DNA of 64,000 bases from Carcharhinus longimanus (lineage: Eukaryota). Where the stretch lies: positions 96,169,805 to 96,233,804 of the forward strand of contig JASCQW010000162.1 in the NCBI GenBank assembly GCA_030264375.1, read 5' to 3'. A program made the translations under genes and the position numbers. Of the stretch, positions 3,150 through 64,000 are shown piece by piece. The notes under the pieces are model-generated. The model saw only the letters and a list, made by a program, of their open reading frames with translations, was not told the DNA's origin and searched no databases. Each line of letters begins with the position of its first letter. Positions within the stretch are counted from its first letter, which is position 1.

Positions 3150-3715
3150 CTTACTTGAGAGGAGATCTTATAGAGACATATAAGATTATGAAGGGAATAA
3201 ATAAGATAGAAGCAGGGAAGTTGTTTCCACTGGCAGGTGAAACTAGAACTAGNNNNNNNNNNNNNNNNNNNNNNNNNNNNNNNNNNNNNNNNNNNNNNNN
3301 NNNNNNNNNNNNNNNNNNNNNNNNNNNNNNNNNNNNNNNNNNNNNNNNNNNNATAAGATAGAAGCAGGGAAGTTGTTTCCACTGGCAGGTGAAACTAGAA
3401 CTAGGGGGCATGGCCTCAAAATAAGGGGAAACAGATTTAGGACCAAGTTGAGGAAGAACTTCTTCACATAAAGGGTTGTGAATCTGTGGACTTCCCTGCC
3501 CAGTGGAGCAATTGAGGCTACCTCATTGAATGTATTTAAGGCAAGGATAGATAAATTTTTGAACAGTAAAAGAATTAAGGGTTATAGTGAGTGAGTGGGT
3601 AAGTGGAGCTGAATCCACGAAAAGATCAGCCATGATCATATTGAATGGCAGAGCAGGCTCGAGGGGTTACTTTGCCTATTCCTACTCCTAGTTCTTATGT
3701 TCTAATTATGTTCTT
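3150..3715 (+). mobile_element. CR1 LINE 3' end spanning a gap
   Basis: LRGDLIETYKIMKGINKIEAGKLFPLAGETRTRGH, then CR1 3'UTR with (tcttatgt) tail. Confidence 0.85.
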
Positions 3716-19977: not shown

Positions 19978-22532
19978 AGTGTCAAAATTAGGAAAACATC
20001 TTGCTAATGTTTAATAATGATCTTGCTGCTTTGTACAAATTAAACTTTTCAATTCATACGGAATTATTAAGTGAATGCAAATGTTCAGTTTTTTTTTGTT
20101 TAAATTTATTTTGTTTTATCAGCAAGTTAATGCCAATAACTAAAAATATGTATCCTCAGGTTGAAGATGTCACAGTGCCAATGCATAAGCTATTGAAGGG
20201 CATTTTATTGGATAGAATTCAATAAAATCAAATAGATACTGGGGACTAGCCAAGTGCTAAGCAAATGATGTGGAAGTTTTGTGGTATTCATAAAAATGGC
20301 TTTACTTCTCCACCATTTCACCAGAAATACATATGGATGCATACAAATTTTAGGCCTTGAGTCTAGCCATATTTATTTTTAGATGAAGACTTGTACAAGT
20401 AATTGTCCGTGTCTAACATTTATCTTCTATATTTATTCTTTGTCTCTGATTCCTTTGTTTTCCTATCCTATAAGGTGTATTCAATCAAAGCATTAATAGT
20501 TAAGGTAACTGCACCTTGGAGCAGCTCCTGAGATCTCATTGAGTGACGTCAATCATTATTCTTGCATGATATACCTTCCTCTAAATTCATATCAACATGT
20601 TAAAGCCCATATCCCTCTGGCTCCACTCAATACTACTAAATTCACAATCATTGTATAATCACATGATTAAATAAAACTCCCCCCTCTAAAAGAGTACCTT
20701 GAAATGAAAATTGATTTTAATACAAGTCAAATTTCCTCATAATTCTCAAAGGTTCCACTCAGTGTGCTGTGAGATTATTTTAATTAATGGCTTTATAAAT
20801 ATTGCCTTAGCATAGTAATCATTCATCGCACAAGAAAAGCTGGTGTGAATTTCATTCCTCTATTATAAAATGTATGAAGTCAGTATGATAGAAACCCAGT
20901 AGTTCCTGCTTAAATATTCATTCCATGTAAGACAGCAGTGAAGGTATAGAAGTGTTAATATTGATATAACATAACTCGTGTGTGTGTGTGTGTGTACGCG
21001 CGCAGATGTGTTTGCAAGTTTGATTGCATGCATTAGTTTTTGGAAATTTTGTGGAGAAAGGCTGATGGAGCAATAAAGAAGTTAAAAGTATTGAACTATG
21101 TTGTCTCTGTTGAACAAACCTCATCTCTGTGAATTTACCAACAGGTGAAAAAAATATAGTGATAAAACTATGTACTGTCAATTCCAGAGTTAATTCAAGA
21201 AAAGTAGAGAACTAAAAAGAATGGAACTTGCTTGAAAGATTCTATAAAACCACAGACACTTTTTGCAGCAAGAGTGGTTGAATGCTCTTTACATTTTCCA
21301 GCCTTTCTGAGCAGATTCATTGGATAAAGTTTGGTGTGACCATTTGGATATAGTGGGCACTGGTACAATGTTGCTGAAACATATGTATCAAACACTCAAG
21401 GAATCTACTGCACACCTAATCAAATGACCAATACCATTTCCCTCATCACAAAATTGGATGTATCCTACTCTCCACCAAAAAAAATGCTGTTTTCAATTTC
21501 AAAAATATAAAATTATCTGTACCTTAGAAATTTACTGTAATAATGGGAAGAAAAACAATTTTATCTATAATGTTACTGTTTTTATATGATGACACAGATT
21601 GCAATGAATCTGTTAATATTGAATTTGACAAAATAACACATGCATTTATATATCACATATACTTGATTTCACAACCATTGCAGGTTTATAACAAAAATAT
21701 TCCCAATTTATTAAATTAGTCCCATTTCTGAGACATAATAATAGCTGGAGGTTGCCTGCATCGCCATTCAGTATTGGCAAAGGCAAGATAGATAAAACTA
21801 GTTAACCCTTTAAAGGAAAATTTAAGCATATCNNNNNNNNNNNNNNNNNNNNNNNNNNNNNNNNNNNNNNNNNNNNNNNNNNNNNNNNNNNNNNNNNNNN
21901 NNNNNNNNNNNNNNNNNNNNNNNNNNNNNNNNTTAACCCTTTAAAGGAAAATTTAAGCATATCACACCCACGGAGAATAATGAATTTGGTCACTTTTTTT
22001 TCAAAGAAAACCCTTACAAATGCCTACAGTTCAGAAAATTTCTAGCATTCTAACAGTACAGGTGTTTGGTAAATTATTTCTCACACATATGAACTCCTAT
22101 ACCATTTCTCAATGACAGGAAGGAAAGCTAGACTGTATGTGTACAAGGACTGGGAAGGCTGTTTTGGATGAATAGTGGAGGCATTAGTAGAGTAGAATAG
22201 AATATCATTGTCCATACAAAAGTCGAGATTTGTCTTTGGCATGTCCTCCTCTTTAACATATAATCATACAGTTATTAGTTTAAAAAATGAATATTTCATG
22301 TATACATACATTCATACATTTATGCATTTATAGCATACATCCCTACCATATCTCCCCTTTAAGAGGTCCGGGCTGCATTTAAGTAGCGGTGGTCACAATA
22401 ATATCAGGCCACTGATGATGTACGTAGCAGTGNNNNNNNNNNNNNNNNNNNNNNNNNNNNNNNNNNNNNNNNNNNNNNNNNNNNNNNNNNNNNNNNNNNN
22501 NNNNNNNNNNNNNNNNNNNNNNNNNNNNNNNN

Positions 22533-22911
22533 CAACCCCATCTCCAACCCCATCTCCACCTCCATCTCCAACATCCTCTCAAGCCTCATCTCAAGCCCCA
22601 TCTCCAACCCCATCTCGACCCCCATCTCCAACCCCATCTCCAACCCCATCTCCAAACCCATCTCCAAACCCCATCTCCAGTTCCATCTCCAAACCCTATT
22701 TCCATTCCATCTTCAGCCCCATCTCCAACCCCATCTCCAAACCCATCTCTAAACCCCATCTCCAAACCCCATCTCCAAACCCCATCTCTAACTCCATCTC
22801 CAGCCCCATCTCCAACCCCATCTCCAACTTCCACTCCAAACTCATCACAAACCCCATCTCATATCTAATCTCCAATCTAATTTCCAACCTCATCTCCAAC
22901 CCCATCTCCAA
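22533..22911. repeat. 12-bp minisatellite (CCCCATCTCCAA)n
   Basis: Roughly 30 imperfect copies; starts in a gap and runs directly into an HE1 3' half. Confidence 0.95.
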
Positions 22912-23072
22912 AGATGTGTGGGTAAGATTGATCAGCCATGCTAAATTGCCCCTTAGTGTCAGGGGATTACAGGGTAAATACATGGGAATACAGGGCTAGG
23001 GCGTAGGTGGGATTGTTTTTGGCGCAGGCTCGATGGGCTGAATGGCCTTCTTCTGCACAGTAGGGATTCTAT
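22908..23072 (+). mobile_element. HE1 SINE 3' half
   Basis: ccaaagatgtgtgggt..catgctaaattgccccttagtgtc..gggattctatg. Confidence 0.85.
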
Positions 23073-23539
23073 GGTCATATGAAAGGCATGGACGAGAGTT
23101 TCAGCTGCAGCTGAGCTGAGGCCGGGGGCTGAAGCCGGGTGATGTTACAGAGATGAGTAGTGGACAAATTAGATGCAGACTGATGAACAAAGTATAATCA
23201 GGAGGCAGACAATTTGATCACTCACAGCATTTCCTATAGATGTCAGCTTAGCCAATATCCTGTCATGTTGCACTTGGTCAAAAGCTATAAATCAAGTTGA
23301 ATAGGCAGGTGACTTAATGACATTGGAGCTGTGTAAGTACATTAGGAAGAACAAATGATGGTGTTAAGGATTTTCTTGCATTCACCAGACAGCCAAGTGA
23401 AAAGACAGCTCAATGCATTTCCAATTTCGTATGTCAGCCTGCATATAGATGAAAATAATTAATTCTCATCCCTTTAGTTATGCAGGTTCTTACACCTCCT
23501 TCAATTACAATCAAATATCATGAACACTATCGACTGCCA

Positions 23540-23865
23540 GTGCATAGCATCCCTACAGTGCAAAAGGAGGCCATTCAGCCCATTGAGTCTGCACTGACAA
23601 CAATCCCACCCATGCCCTATCCCTGTAACCCTACATATTCACTATGGCTTATCCATCTAACCCACACATTGCAGGACACCAAGGGGAAATTTAGTATGGC
23701 TAATCAACCAAACCTGCATATCTTTCGGACTGCAGGAGGAAACTGGGGCACCAGGAGGAAACGCACACAGATACGGAGAGAATGTGCAAACTCCACGCAG
23801 ACAGTGACCCAAGCCGGGAATCAAACCCAGGTCCCTGGAGCTGTGAAGCATCAGTGCTGACCACT
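23540..23865 (-). mobile_element. HE1/V-SINE
   Basis: Reverse-complement V-domain and tRNA-like head. Confidence 0.9.
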
Positions 23866-25189
23866 GGGATTGTTGTTGGTGCAAGATAACCGTGTTAGCC
23901 TCAGAGACAAACATTACAATTGGCATTTTATTTTGCAAGGTTTGTCTCAAAATAGCTCGTACTTTCAAACAGGGAAATCTAAAATAAACAAGCCATCTCT
24001 TTAAAAATGTAATCACACATTGTGTCTGCAGTCCTTCCTGCCACCGCGAGTTAGCTGATGAATTCGCAGCTTTAAAACCCTGCCACTGCTCTGAAAAATT
24101 TACAATCAAAGCCAGCTGCTTTCGTGAATTTTTAATGGCACTTTTCTACCTATCAATACCCGTTTGTAACCACATTTAGTAAGTCACTTCTTCCCCCACT
24201 ATGTTGTATGCCTCGCCACCACGGCCAGTCAGAACAGAGAATTTGGCACTCAGCCAAATCTCCACTCACAGCAGGAAGACTGGAGATTCCTAGCCTCGGG
24301 TGAGGTCAGAGAATTCCAGCCTTGGTCTTTCGTGGACGTTGACAAGGTGAATTGGCTACCTGTCGTTGTCAAGTGGCTAGCGCTGCCACGACACCCCTAA
24401 ATCCTGCCTCGGGGAAATGGCTAGGGATGGGATGGAGCCAGGGAATTAATCAGCAGCGGAAAAGTCCACATCAATCCATCTTTCTGCCCACCTTCATCTC
24501 AGAGTTCTTCGGCGGTGGATGTAGTAGGTCGATAATGCTCATTTGGATGCTGTATCTAGTTGAACAAAGAAATGCCGTCTTGTGCAATGAGTCAACTTGT
24601 CTTTGCCATTAGAAATACCTGGATTAAAGCACTCAGCGTCATTCATCACAATCCACATGAACATGACACTGAGACAATTGTAATCTCTTGATATTTGTCA
24701 GTGCATGTGCAATGTGTTGTGTTGGATCATCTCCCACATATATCTGTATATGCATATGTACAAATATGATACAAAAGATTGAATGATATCTGACAACTTT
24801 GCGAAGGTGTATTTGGTTTTTGACTTATAGATCAAAAACCAAATATAGATGTTAACCAGCTTCACCATCTCCAGCCCCATCAATTGGTTTTGAAATATAG
24901 ATGTTAACTGGCTTCACCACAACAAAAAGAAACATCTTGAAGATGAATCACTCGGATGCCGCAAGATGTTCCATAGGTATTGTTGTACATAAATTCAAGT
25001 GCTTCAGGAGTATTAGAAACAGGTTTTTACAAAAATGGGCGGCATGGACAAGTTGGGCCAAAGGGCCTGTTTCCATGCTGTAAACCGCTATGACTCTATA
25101 CATATGTGCACACAAACACTTAACGGACCCTCAGTCCATTAGAATAGTGTTAGTTTATACATCAGTGTCTTTTTTTTTGGTGGAATATG

Positions 25190-25412
25190 GATTCAATTAA
25201 AAAAAAATTGGAATTAAGAACCTATTGGTGATCACGAATCCATTGCAGTTCATTTGGCTCATTAATGTCCCTTTTAGGGAGGGAAATCTGCCCTCCTTAC
25301 CCCGTTCTGGCCTACATGTGACTCCAGAGACACTGCAATGTGGTTGACTCAACTGCTTCTCCAAGGGCAACTAGGGATGGGCTCACAGCCAGCGACACCC
25401 ATGTCCCACAGA
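25190..25412 (+). mobile_element. tRNA-derived shark SINE (second family), 3' part
   Basis: ttagggagggaaatctgcc..ctggcctacatgtgactccagag..ggcaactagggatggg, shared with 30064, 54018 and 58695. Confidence 0.8.
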
Positions 25413-25535
25413 TAGGGAGGAATAGAAGAGCCTCTCTCCCCAATTAAAGGCTCGCTTTGAGTCCAACACCAAGCGGCCCAACCCTGTGGAGGCAGCCGGG
25501 GGGGCGGGCCGCACTCTGCTGCCTTTGGCACTCAC

Positions 25536-25666
25536 CTCCTGCAACTTCTCGTTGTCCTTGGCTTCCTCCAGCCAGCACTGCAGGAGAGGCTTCAGCTTAC
25601 ACATGTTCTTGTAGCTCAGCTGGAGAGCTTCGAACCTGCAGATGGTCGTCTGGCTAAACATCTTGC
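25536..25666 (-). CDS. POU5F1: Isolated class V POU (POU5F1/OCT4-like) exon 3: C-terminal half of POU-specific domain plus start of linker; may be a duplicated pseudo-exon
   Basis: Translation (G)[43 protein letters not shown] matches POU5F1 exon 3 ([44 protein letters not shown]). Acceptor ttctttttgttgtccccaccaccccccccccAG|GC, donor GAG|GTGAGT; 131 bp, phase 1/0 as in POU5F1 exon 3. WLEEA..NE.LQE looks closer to POU5F1 than POU5F3, but paralog identity is an inference. Confidence 0.85.
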
Positions 25667-26058
25667 CTGGGGGGGGGGTGGTGGGGACAACAAAAAGAAG
25701 AAAGGCAGCTTGAGAATGGCCAGCTCCCACTCGCCAAGGAATAAATGCCAACTCTGGAGGATGCCAGCCTGAGGTGGACCACCTCACAAAACCTGCTCCC
25801 GGGCAAACTTGCCAACAGATCCAGACAGAGGGTGACCGAGGGGGGGTCATCCTACTGGCAGATAGTAGCAGCCCTGGTACAAGAGCATGTCCACCAATGC
25901 TGCCAAGACCTGTGGGCACCGTGGGGGTTGGGGATGATGTACGTAGCAGTGAACAGCATGGACCATTCTGGCAGCAAACAGCAATCATGTAAAACTGAAG
26001 ACAGCTTGAATGAAATATGCTGCCTACAAAGCAATGACCAGGTCGATCCCATGCCACT

Positions 26059-26383
26059 GGGCGGCACGGTGGCATAATGGTTAGCACTGCAGCCTCACAG
26101 GGCCAGGAACTCGGATTCAATTCCGGCCTCGGGGACTGTCTGTGTGGAATTTGCACATCCTCCTCATGTCTGCATGGGTTTCCTCCAGGTGCTCTGGTTT
26201 CCTCCCACAATCCAAAGATGTGTGGATAAGATTAGGCTATGCTAAATTGCCCCTTAGTGTCATGGGGATTAGCAGGGTAAATACCTGGGTTTACAGGGAT
26301 AGGGCCTGGGGGGGACTGTTGTTGGTGCAGGCTCGATGGGCCAAATGGCTTTCTTCTGCACTGCAAGGGTTCTATGATTCTAT
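26059..26383 (+). mobile_element. HE1/V-SINE
   Basis: Full copy with (ttctatga) tail. Confidence 0.9.
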
Positions 26384-43944: not shown

Positions 43945-44560
43945 TTTGATTTGATTTTATTTATTATTGTCACATGTATTAACATACAGTGAAAAGTATT
44001 GTTTCTTGCGCACTATACAGACAAAACATACCGCTCATAGAGAAGGAAACAAGATAGTGCCGAATGCAATGTTACAGTCATAGCTAGGGTGTAGCGAAAG
44101 ATCAACTTAATGCGAGATACGTCCATTCAAAAGTCTCATGGCAGCAGGGAAGAAACTGCTCCTGGGGTCAGTTGGTACGTGACCTCAGACTTTTGTACCT
44201 TCTTCCTGACGGATGAAGGTGGATGAGAGAATGTGTGGGGCACATGGGATCCTTAATTATGGGGCTGCTTTGCCGAGGCAGCTGGAAGCGTAGACAGAGT
44301 AAATGGATGGGAGGCTGGTTTGCATGATGGATTGGGCTACATTCACAACTTTTTGTAGTTCTTTTTGGTCTTGGGCAGAGCAGGAGCCATACCAAGCTGT
44401 GGTTCAACCAGAAAGAATGCTTCCTGTGGTGCATCTGTAAAAGTTGGTGAGAGTCATAGCTGAAATATCAAATTTCCTTAGTCTTCAGAGAAAGTAGATG
44501 GCTTTCTTAACTATAGTGTTGGCATGGGAGGACCAGGACAGGTTGTTGGTGGTCTGGACA
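43945..44560 (-). mobile_element. Rex1/Babar-type LINE 3' end
   Basis: Same family as 8270-8825 (IIKDP..P.HSL.H.LPSGRRYKSLRSRTN). Confidence 0.8.
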
Positions 44561-45314
44561 CCAAAAAGCTTGATTTCCAGAGAAACGCCTTTGACCAAGC
44601 AGAACAGGCTTTATAATCAGCTACCCTGCTTCTTCATTTTAATCCAGACAAGCAGATTGACATTTGATGCATCACCTATCGGCACAGGGGCTGTACTTTC
44701 CCATAAAGATGGAAGATGGCATAGAATGGCCTGTTGCTCTTGCTTCCGGGACTTAGTCGGATGCTGATAAGACATATTCATAGATTGATAAGGAGAGTTT
44801 AGCAGTTATCTTTGCTGTCAAGAAGTGTCATCAGTTTATGTACGACAGCCATTTCACCGTTGTTCCAGATCTTAACTTGTTGCTTGGGCTGTTCTGGAAA
44901 GATGTACCAGTCCTGCCAATTACATCCACCCGAGGTCATAGATGTTAACTGTGTACAGCTATACATTTCAGCATGGGCACATATCTCCAATGCCATTGCT
45001 CGAAGTCAGCTACAGATCCTCAGGTGATATCTTTGCTGCCTGTTCCTTAGGAGATAGTCCTTGCTTTGAATTTCCTGGCTATCCTACCCATTTCATCAGA
45101 TTACATCAAGATATGGACCCATAGGAACCCAGTCCTTTCAAAAGTGAAGAGAATGATTTTGACAGGCTGGCATTTTGACAAATCCAAACAAGTCCGGCCC
45201 TATTTGCAATGTAGAGATGAAATCCATTGCAAAGACAGGATACTTCTGTGGGGGAACCGAGTGATAATATCCTCCTAGGGCGACAACCACTCCTCTGGGA
45301 GTTGCACAGTAACG

Positions 45315-46950: not shown

Positions 46951-47862
46951 CAAATCCCAAGCTCAAGGACTATGCACAGATTTAGCTTATGTATACAGTT
47001 AGATGTTGGTAATAAACAGATATTGTCCAATCATAAAGACTTCTAGACATCTTTATGAGAAAATTATAATCATCCAACATGTCTCAGCTGAAATTCCTGT
47101 CCCTACACAAGGTCTGCACAAATGCATTTTCCAGCAGAGATTACAAGATAGAAATCAGAAGGGAGAACCTTCCGAAGGGACAATCAGAAGGGGTGGCCTG
47201 GCGGCACAGTAGTTAGTACAGCTGCCTTTCTTTTTAAAAAGGGGTGTGGAAGAGACACAATGGGTTTTGTGCCAGGTGCAACAGCCCAAGTTTCTGCTCT
47301 GTACATTGTAAATAGTTAATGACCTGTTAGCACAATCCAACATTGTCACATGCCTGTAGTACTGTTTGTCCCAACTAATTGGGAAGATGTAGACTGAGTG
47401 GTCATGGGTACATCATGATGACATGCACACAGGAAGTGACATGTCAGTAGTATGGGAGTTCTTCCCCAACTTGGGCAGACACACCGCATGTAAGAGCTGC
47501 TAAAATCTATCAGTAAACAGTTTAACTTGCTAGTCCTTTGTCATTATTTCTATACAACCCAGCAACTTTACGGGTCAGAACTGTTCCAACAATAATTGGA
47601 AAATGTGGGCCAATACCTCATAAACACATACTTTGAACCAAAATTTTGAACTGAACTCTCCTCTTTTACTTCTAATTTAATTCATAACTTTCTCTTGTTC
47701 ACCAGTGGTTCTCTTGTTCACCAGTGGCCTTTAAACCTTACCTGATCTGGGAACTTACATGAATCATTTAACCCCTCTCTGGAGAGCTCACAGACAGATC
47801 ATCTCTTCAAGAGATTATTAATGAGGCCCCCGTTATCTAGCTTTTAACACCTTAAATCATGG

Positions 47863-48062
47863 CTTCATTAACGTGACATGGGTATGCCTTCATCAACATG
47901 ACATGGGTATGCCTTCATCAACATGACATGGGTATGGCTTCATCAACATGACATGGGTATGGCTTCATCAACATGACATGGGTATGGCTTGATCAACATG
48001 ACATGGGTATGCCTTCATCAACATGACATGGGTATGGATTCATCAACATGACATGGGTATGA
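47863..48062. repeat. 25-bp minisatellite TTCATCAACATGACATGGGTATGSC, 8 copies
   Basis: Head-to-tail copies without spacers. Confidence 0.95.
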
Positions 48063-62742: not shown

Positions 62743-64000
62743 ACAAGATCACAAGAGATAGGAGCAGAAGTAGGCCATTTGGCCCATCAGGTCCACTCCA
62801 CCATTCGATCATGGCTGATATGCCCCTCATCCCGATTTTCCTGCCTTCTCCCCCTAACCGTTCAACCAATTACAATTAAAAATCTATCTAACTCCTCCTT
62901 AAATTTACTACTGTCCCAGCATCCACTGCACTTTGGGGTGGTGAATTCCACAGATTCACAACCCTTTGGGAGAAATAGTTTCTCCTCAACTCTGTTTTAA
63001 ATTTGCTACCCCTTATCCTAAGACTATGATTTCTTGTCCTAGAATATCCCACTCCACAACTTATTTATCTATAATCTTTTATCATCTTGTATACCTCAAT
63101 TTGATCTCCCCTCATTCCTGTAAATTCCAAAGAGTATAGGCCTAAACTGTTCAAACTGTCATCATATGACAAACCCTCATCTCTGGTATCAATCTAGTGA
63201 ATCTCCTCTGAACTGCCTCCAATGCCACTACACCTTTCCTCAAATGAGGCGACCAAAACTGAGTATTATACTCCAGGTGCGAAATCACCAATGCCTTGTA
63301 CAGTTGCAACAATAGTTCCTCACCTTTATATTCTATTCCTTTAGCTATAAATGCCAACATTCCATTTGTTTTCTTTATTATCTGCTAGTTTTCTGTGACT
63401 CAGGAACGAGGACACCCAGATCCCTCTGCACTGGAGCACCCCGAAGTCTCTCCCCATTTAGAGAATAAGTCGCCTTCCCATTTTTTCAATCAAAATGCAT
63501 GACCTCACACTTATCCACGTTAAACTTTATCTGCCACACTTTGGCCCACTCTCCCAACCTATCTGTATCCATTTGTAAGGTTCTTATTTCCTCATTGCAA
63601 CTCACTGTCCTGTCTATTTTTGTATCATCTGCAAATTTGGCTATAGAGCCTTTTAATCCTATATCGAAGTCATTAATATTGATTGTAAATAGCTGGGGCT
63701 CCAAGGACAGAACCCTTTGGCACCCCGCTAATTACTTCCTGCCATCCAGAAAAAGAAACCTTTATCCTGATTCTCTGTCTTCTGTCCATCAGCCAGTCCA
63801 CCTATCCAAGCTAATAAGTTACCCCTAAACCCATGTGATCTAACCTTGTGAATTAACCTTTTGTGTGGCACCTTATCAGATGCCTTCCAGAAGTCCACAT
63901 ATACTATATCTACAGGATCCCCATTATCCACATTGCTTGTTACATCCTCAAATAACTCTAGTAAATTAGTCAAACGTGATTTGCATTTCATAAAACCATG
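62743..64000 (-). mobile_element. CR1 LINE ORF2 reverse transcriptase to 3' end, degenerate, continuing beyond the window
   Basis: ORFs LTNLLELFEDVT..VDIVYVDFWKASDKVPHKRL; PQLFTININD..KFADDTK; LQLYKALV.SHLEY..QFWSP..LEAVQRRFTRLIP. Confidence 0.92.

Follow-up and report, generated by a model that had tools for sequence, protein, structure and literature searches.

A 3.4-kb POU5F1 (Oct4) exon block foreign to its site upstream of MITF-like exons in Carcharhinus longimanus: candidate polymorphic insertion or contig chimera

Structure of the locus

The window analyzed here is a stretch of 64,000 nucleotides from the Carcharhinus longimanus assembly GCA_030264375.1 (contig JASCQW010000162.1, positions 96,169,805 to 96,233,804 of the forward strand). 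As summarized in Table 1, it contains a block carrying a single POU exon, with the exact 19-mer GATGATGTACGTAGCAGTG at 22414–22432 and again at 25933–25951. The original prediction, made from the sequence alone, described a POU exon block bounded by this direct repeat; both copies were confirmed, as were the minisatellite, the SINE pieces and the POU exon between them. The description of the repeat as a boundary holds for the right edge, which coincides with the first base of the 19-mer, but the left junction is hidden in the Ns of the gap at 22433–22532. Only the right junction is therefore readable, and the putative target duplication is seen as two copies of the 19-mer, the left junction falling within the gap.

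Table 1. Features identified at the POU exon block (positions within the window).
Feature	Position	Strand	Remarks
Left flank, C162-native; 500-bp contig including the 19-mer	21933..22413	+	Old-repeat homology continues into right flank
19-mer, left copy; last base abuts gap	22414..22432	+	
100-N gap concealing left junction	22433..22532	.	
12-bp minisatellite, 31 diverged units, 78% matches, unique in assembly	22533..22911	+	
Common SINE, 3′ half	22905..23073	+	
Presumed POU5F1 intron 3 sequence	23046..25535	-	Single copy apart from repeats; 97–100% alike in four runs
SINE copy within block	23543..23866	-	
POU5F1 exon 3 (131 bp), phase 1 to phase 0, both splice sites (AG/GT) intact	25536..25666	-	
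POU5F1 intron 2, 266 bp, severed at junction	25667..25932	-	X1, X2 and X7 contigs read onward
13-mer spanning right junction; 12/13 match to inverted minisatellite unit	25924..25936	-	
19-mer, right copy, joined to block without Ns	25933..25951	+	X2, X6 and X7 contigs fit from 25933
Old low-copy repeat, right flank	25945..26042	+	Other copies run into left flank, not block

Within the window the 19-mer has two matches at ≤3 mismatches (0.02 expected; two or more in 0/100 shuffles), and the 2.68-Gb assembly contains only 2 exact matches, both at this locus. This unique pair rules out a multicopy repeat, which the prediction had named as a possible refutation. Over its last 533 bp the block has a GC content of 0.58, compared to 0.35 on its left and 0.43 on its right. 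The 500-bp contig of the left flank shows a 31-bp flank overlap across its own left gap.

A perfect 28-mer taken from the minisatellite occurs once in the genome, and three perfect consensus units in tandem gave 0 matches. Positions 24841–24919 contain a 27-bp imperfect direct repeat (copies 52 bp apart) with a 17-bp word, starting at 24865, that is identical to the minisatellite. This shared word hints that the minisatellite is related to the POU5F1 intron; intron 3 is a candidate, not a proven, native home. Near the minisatellite, record 9 of sequencing run X2 departs from the reference at 22954. About 480 bp of the intron (24154–24629) have an 85–86% relative on C1 (162.913 Mb) and appear to be an old low-copy element. 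No second near-identical copy of 23085–23536, 23870–25030 or 25400–26050 was found in the assembly, no LINE body was seen in the visible 3.4 kb of the block, and its ORFs gave no reverse transcriptase match. A motif search and tblastn detected no other POU exons in the window. The longest open frame of the window (25386–26231, minus strand; 282 codons, the next having 162) has upstream ATGs, crosses the right junction and passes through the POU exon in frame; it is probably a chance product of GC-rich DNA.

To the left of the site lies a MITF/TFE-family exon (Pfam, E 7.8e-18; L061:9018-9267). The MITF-like exons point away from the site, which is located approximately 64 kb upstream of the first of them, near G000:C162 96,128,048, which is recognized as a first exon by a sequence motif. 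Of the window ORFs of ≥75 aa, 136/138 were scanned for a host gene and none exceeded the Pfam cut-off, a scan that could miss short exons; the site is classed as intergenic. Elsewhere in the window, matches to RNase H and reverse transcriptase that are weak and fall short of the cut-off (44498–44764 and 63489–63731) represent pieces of decayed retroelements, and a 25-bp tandem repeat (8 copies, 94% matches) occupies 47859–48061.

Identity of the exon and its parent gene

The POU exon matches Pfam Pou with an E-value of 7.3e-18, and its best match among solved structures is POU5F1 (E 2.8e-18). It encodes the POU-specific domain's second half and the start of the linker, and is flanked by intron on both sides with intact splice sites. 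Comparison by eye with the part of the PMC9492771 alignment available to us gave 40/43 residues identical to cloudy catshark POU5F1 and 34/43 to POU5F3; the exon thus appears closer to shark POU5F1 than to POU5F3. According to the same partial source, exon 3 is 131 bp long in other sharks too. The block shares with elasmobranch POU5F1 exon 3, as presented there, this length, the LSYKNM and LEEAKD words and a parent gene beside CCHCR1-family exons, but it stands alone on another scaffold and has a Cys in place of the usual Arg. This Cys (25575–25577) lies at the end of the POU-specific domain, where most POU5 proteins listed in the accessible text have Arg or Lys. It is also present in run X1, whose exon shows 0 differences, so it is no sign of decay.

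The parent gene was found on C81 by searching with the exons of a second POU5 gene located on C148; the latter has exons 2–5 in order, matches POU5F3 and shows 77% identity to the exon of the block. On C81, a gap of 9,469 N (G000:C81:101883560-101893028; L049, L050), in a region that is 43% N, separates POU5F1 exon 2 from exon 5. The distance from exon 2 to exon 5 is 10.2 kb, within the range of 7.3–10.9 kb given for two other sharks in the available sections of PMC9492771. These sections also place Pou5f1 beside Cchcr1/Tcf19 by synteny. HCR-family matches were detected approximately 35 kb past C81 exon 5 (E 1e-4, over the cut-off; a stronger HCR match lies on C156), and the C81 gene would therefore adjoin CCHCR1-family exons, as expected for Pou5f1.

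No further exon 3 of POU5F1 was found among 16 assembly candidates scored, and there was no exon 4 among the 15 candidates that were scored against its POU5F3 counterpart. Since no other copy was found, the C162 block is taken to carry the only POU5F1 exon 3 of the assembly. The original prediction overlooked this point, together with the gap in the native gene where the exon belongs; these two facts make a misassembly nearly as likely as an insertion.

Right junction in other sequencing runs

Four public runs (of 24 from 11 studies) were compared with the reference over 22915–26125, entirely at the level of contigs; this interval starts to the right of the left flank, the left junction and the minisatellite (22533–22911), and the matches considered are the 32 listed of approximately 415,000 contig pieces. 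In none of the four runs (4/4) did a contig among the listed matches bridge 25932/25933. On the block side, X1 record 8 and X2 record 15 fit up to 25933 and continue with 93 and 132 unlike letters, respectively, and X7 record 31 fits up to 25932, followed by 135 unlike letters. On the other side, X2 record 16, X6 record 24 and X7 record 32 match the reference rightward of and including 25933, with 1,276, 2,309 and 97 unlike letters on their left, respectively. The unlike tails would represent native intron 2 (block side) and the left flank (right-flank side). All these records cross the native sides at depth 2–15, so neither side looks prone to drop-out; the contig depths of these runs are too noisy to indicate copy number.

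Run X1 is nearly identical to the reference: four of its records, which total 2,077 bp and include the exon, show 0 differences, a fifth has 1 gap, and record 8 differs at 2 positions. No right-flank piece of X1 is among the listed matches, and its lack of cover at 25971 is a hole that proves nothing. Run X6 has no piece for 25087–25932 among the listed matches.

In the reference, a contig of 9,780 bp that contains no Ns spans the right junction, which shares ≤1 bp with the native continuation. Because the contigs of the other runs all break at 25932/25933, the block is foreign to the C162 site, which it enters where the 19-mer begins, and it is not common to the compared runs, the junction being absent from the contigs listed for all four. 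The suggestion that the block entered as a unit was thus borne out as far as its foreignness is concerned, but a chimeric contig is nearly as likely a cause as an insertion. The expectation of a single 19-mer copy in relatives also appears to hold, judging from these contigs.

The right-flank repeat, which is old and low-copy, has two other copies whose alignments into the left flank are reached by 3 and 5 of 1000 shuffles; against the end of the block the same copies gave weaker alignments (51 and 318/1000). These old-repeat alignments lend modest support to an ancestral order of left flank, 19-mer and right flank.

Behavior of gaps in the assembly

A survey of 1,404,000 bases identified 114 gaps of 100 N. 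An exact overlap of 14–77 bp directly across the gap was observed in 16/114 cases, 8 of these 16 in unique sequence (14, 16, 20, 21, 31, 31, 47 and 52 bp), and 12 further gaps have imperfect overlaps shifted by <100 bp. Drop-outs or heterozygous indels could account for the exact-overlap class. Two members lie in the window itself, at 3201–3404 (52 bp) and 21802–21963 (31 bp). In view of the exact and imperfect overlaps, a length of 19 bp is not diagnostic. The 19-mer fits the overlap class in size, but its second copy is displaced by 3,400 bp instead of standing directly across the gap; a unique flank word displaced by kilobases was seen at 1/114 gaps, that of the POU block. At a 704-N gap on C81, a 50-bp word within SINE-derived repeats recurs at a distance of 1.1 kb. 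An overlap of 19 bp is thus nothing unusual in this assembly, but a seamless foreign join at the first base of the 19-mer is not. Round sizes (500 and 3,400) were also considered as marks of cut points and rejected (contig sizes that are multiples of 100: 4/294, p 0.34).

Features bearing on the mechanism of insertion

The sequence features of L1-type events were sought at the 19-mer, where the nick sites read AGTG/A or CATC/A and not TTTT/A, the motif of human insertions in the portion of PMC5110952 at hand. No poly(A) was found at the right end or elsewhere in the visible block, the left end lying inside the gap, and the nearest poly(A) signal in gene sense (23927) is 1.4 kb from the gap, compared with the 10–30 nt between signal and tail expected of L1 retroposition. 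A processed pseudogene was rejected, since the introns were not removed (one exon with intron on both sides), and LINE 3′ transduction was not supported, no LINE body being seen in the visible 3.4 kb, gap contents aside. Flank matches of 22 near-full local SINE copies (5–9 bp) equal those of 300 random controls, a weak test because the copies are old.

The right junction has the microhomology or added-base features of repair-type events (≤1 bp shared; inverted-repeat match). In the 13-mer spanning it, 10/13 matching bases are native and only 3 come from the target; 0.05–0.4% of positions are as well matched to the inverted minisatellite, and the match was noticed post hoc. No hairpin was found at this junction (z 1.36).

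Discussion

We consider it slightly better than an even bet that the 3.4-kb POU5F1 (Oct4) piece is a young, unfixed and probably heterozygous insertion that duplicated 19 bp of its target. Neither a scaffold join nor an overlap merge can yield a gap-free, homology-free junction. An insertion is favored because the junction has both properties and because contigs of low depth in other runs span both true paths. The heterozygous insertion proposed in the original prediction is therefore retained as the slightly preferred reading, with its left junction unseen.

Almost as likely, although somewhat short of even, is a contig-level chimera, in which the contig of the native POU5F1 gene would have been joined to the start of a C162 contig, the 19 bp being an overlap of the latter with its neighbor, as at many 100-N gaps here, and the animal would have a single 19-mer. 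It gains from the empty native place, a gap of fitting size in an N-rich region opposite the sole exon 3, and from the unseen left junction. The absence of the junction from the listed contigs of all four runs, the near-identical X1 among them, points the same way, as do unique overlaps of 14–21 bp at 4/114 gaps and the 31-bp overlap only 500 bp away. However, a chimera needs chimeric reads or a homology-free zero-gap join, and both true paths would have to fail although low-depth runs cross them. The native sequence continues for at least 93–135 bp, so 25932 is no obvious contig end; contig sizes lack the rounding that would mark cut points; the displaced-word pattern is found at a single gap of 114; and the inverted-minisatellite match at the junction is left unexplained. 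The concern about a scaffolding error raised in the prediction is thus answered for a plain scaffold join, but not for a chimeric contig. The weighing of insertion against chimera is a matter of judgement, not computation.

Returning to an insertion, repair-type copying of DNA is preferred over LINE action because the L1 features fail, and we assign to it, tentatively, the larger part of the insertion reading, at a probability below even. The target would have suffered a staggered break or a stalled fork and been patched with POU5F1 DNA copied from the minisatellite as far as a G-rich word of intron 2. The end of the new strand may then have snapped back on the minisatellite, gaining 3–4 bases identical to those with which the target starts, and repair-type template switching would have duplicated 19 target bases recently, in the lineage of the sequenced shark. 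In a heterozygous animal the left contig could then end on the last base of the 19-mer, and the near-identical copies might leave the native POU5F1 place unassembled. The complete scenario of a polymorphic Oct4 exon upstream of MITF, inserted without L1 and with a 19-bp duplication and microhomology from snap-back on a minisatellite 3 kb away, is unlikely in all its details.

Within the insertion reading, a smaller share, improbable overall, falls to LINE-driven retroposition of unspliced POU5F1 RNA, 5′-truncated in intron 2; the 19-mer would then be the target-site duplication, and the gap would conceal the tail. The insert has a single gene orientation with its 3′ end at the gap. In the available text of PMC5110952, a 19-bp duplication fits human class 1 insertions, and intronic RNA can be inserted in trans; 14,081 retrocopies are given for cartilaginous fishes in the accessible part of a VGP survey (10.64898/2026.06.26.734816), and Oct4 is described in part of PMC9492771 as a germline and early-embryo gene. 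Against this stand the nick sites, the lack of visible poly(A), the distance of the signal from the gap, the old local SINEs without target duplications and the lack of a reverse transcriptase match in the ORFs of the block; the LINE transduction or L1-type retroposition envisaged originally was thus not supported. A duplicate fixed long ago, or a tandem duplication of greater length inside the gap, is very improbable: the gap could hold more sequence and the exon has its unusual Cys, but the exon in X1 record 7 shows 0 differences and X1 also has what appears to be the native continuation, three other runs appear to show the site without the block, and old-repeat homology links left flank to right flank.

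The favored insertion resembles the templated sequence insertion polymorphisms (TSIPs) of PMC5110952, in which, in the sections available, distant unique sequence, including intronic sequence, is inserted as a polymorphism. With class 1 it would share a duplication of recipient sequence, but not TTTT/A, and no poly(A) is visible. With the repair-type class 2, characterized there by insertions without target duplications, it shares microhomology but differs in the apparent 19-bp duplication, the 19-mer being present twice in the assembly, if real. Human insertions with microhomology of 1–3 bp, templated bases and site duplication are described in the accessible part of PMC5120786; these interchromosomal insertions by FoSTeS/MMBIR or end joining are similar in the copying from another chromosome, the 1-bp microhomology and the site duplication, and templated bases are also possible in the shark block, which is far smaller (3.4 kb; 19-bp duplication) and has one visible junction. 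Mammalian retrocopies such as POU5F1B, in the sources partly available, likewise bring this parent gene to a new place but are spliced full copies, unlike a single exon with introns. Overlapping flanks at gaps of unknown size in short-read assemblies likewise repeat a contig-end word in the next contig, but in the present case 3,400 bp of that contig, foreign in sequence, precede the second copy. No report of a shark POU5F1 pseudogene or of this insertion was found in the literature, which was partially covered.

Whether insertion or artefact, the lone exon 3 would make no working gene and is predicted to be inert. The idea of a mechanism for moving a pluripotency-gene exon is accordingly weak, as the exon is lone, intergenic and frame-shifting. 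If the block is an artefact, this is a matter of curation only: POU5F1 is split, its exon 3 standing on C162 and its exon 4 missing among the candidates, and might be mistaken for a pseudogene or a lost gene. If real, it would be a germline insertion of gene sequence, and a very young one, in a genome that evolves slowly and whose common SINEs show no target duplications. It would represent the move of an exon observed at the polymorphic stage in a cartilaginous fish, and would mark the way in which sharks relocate unique DNA.
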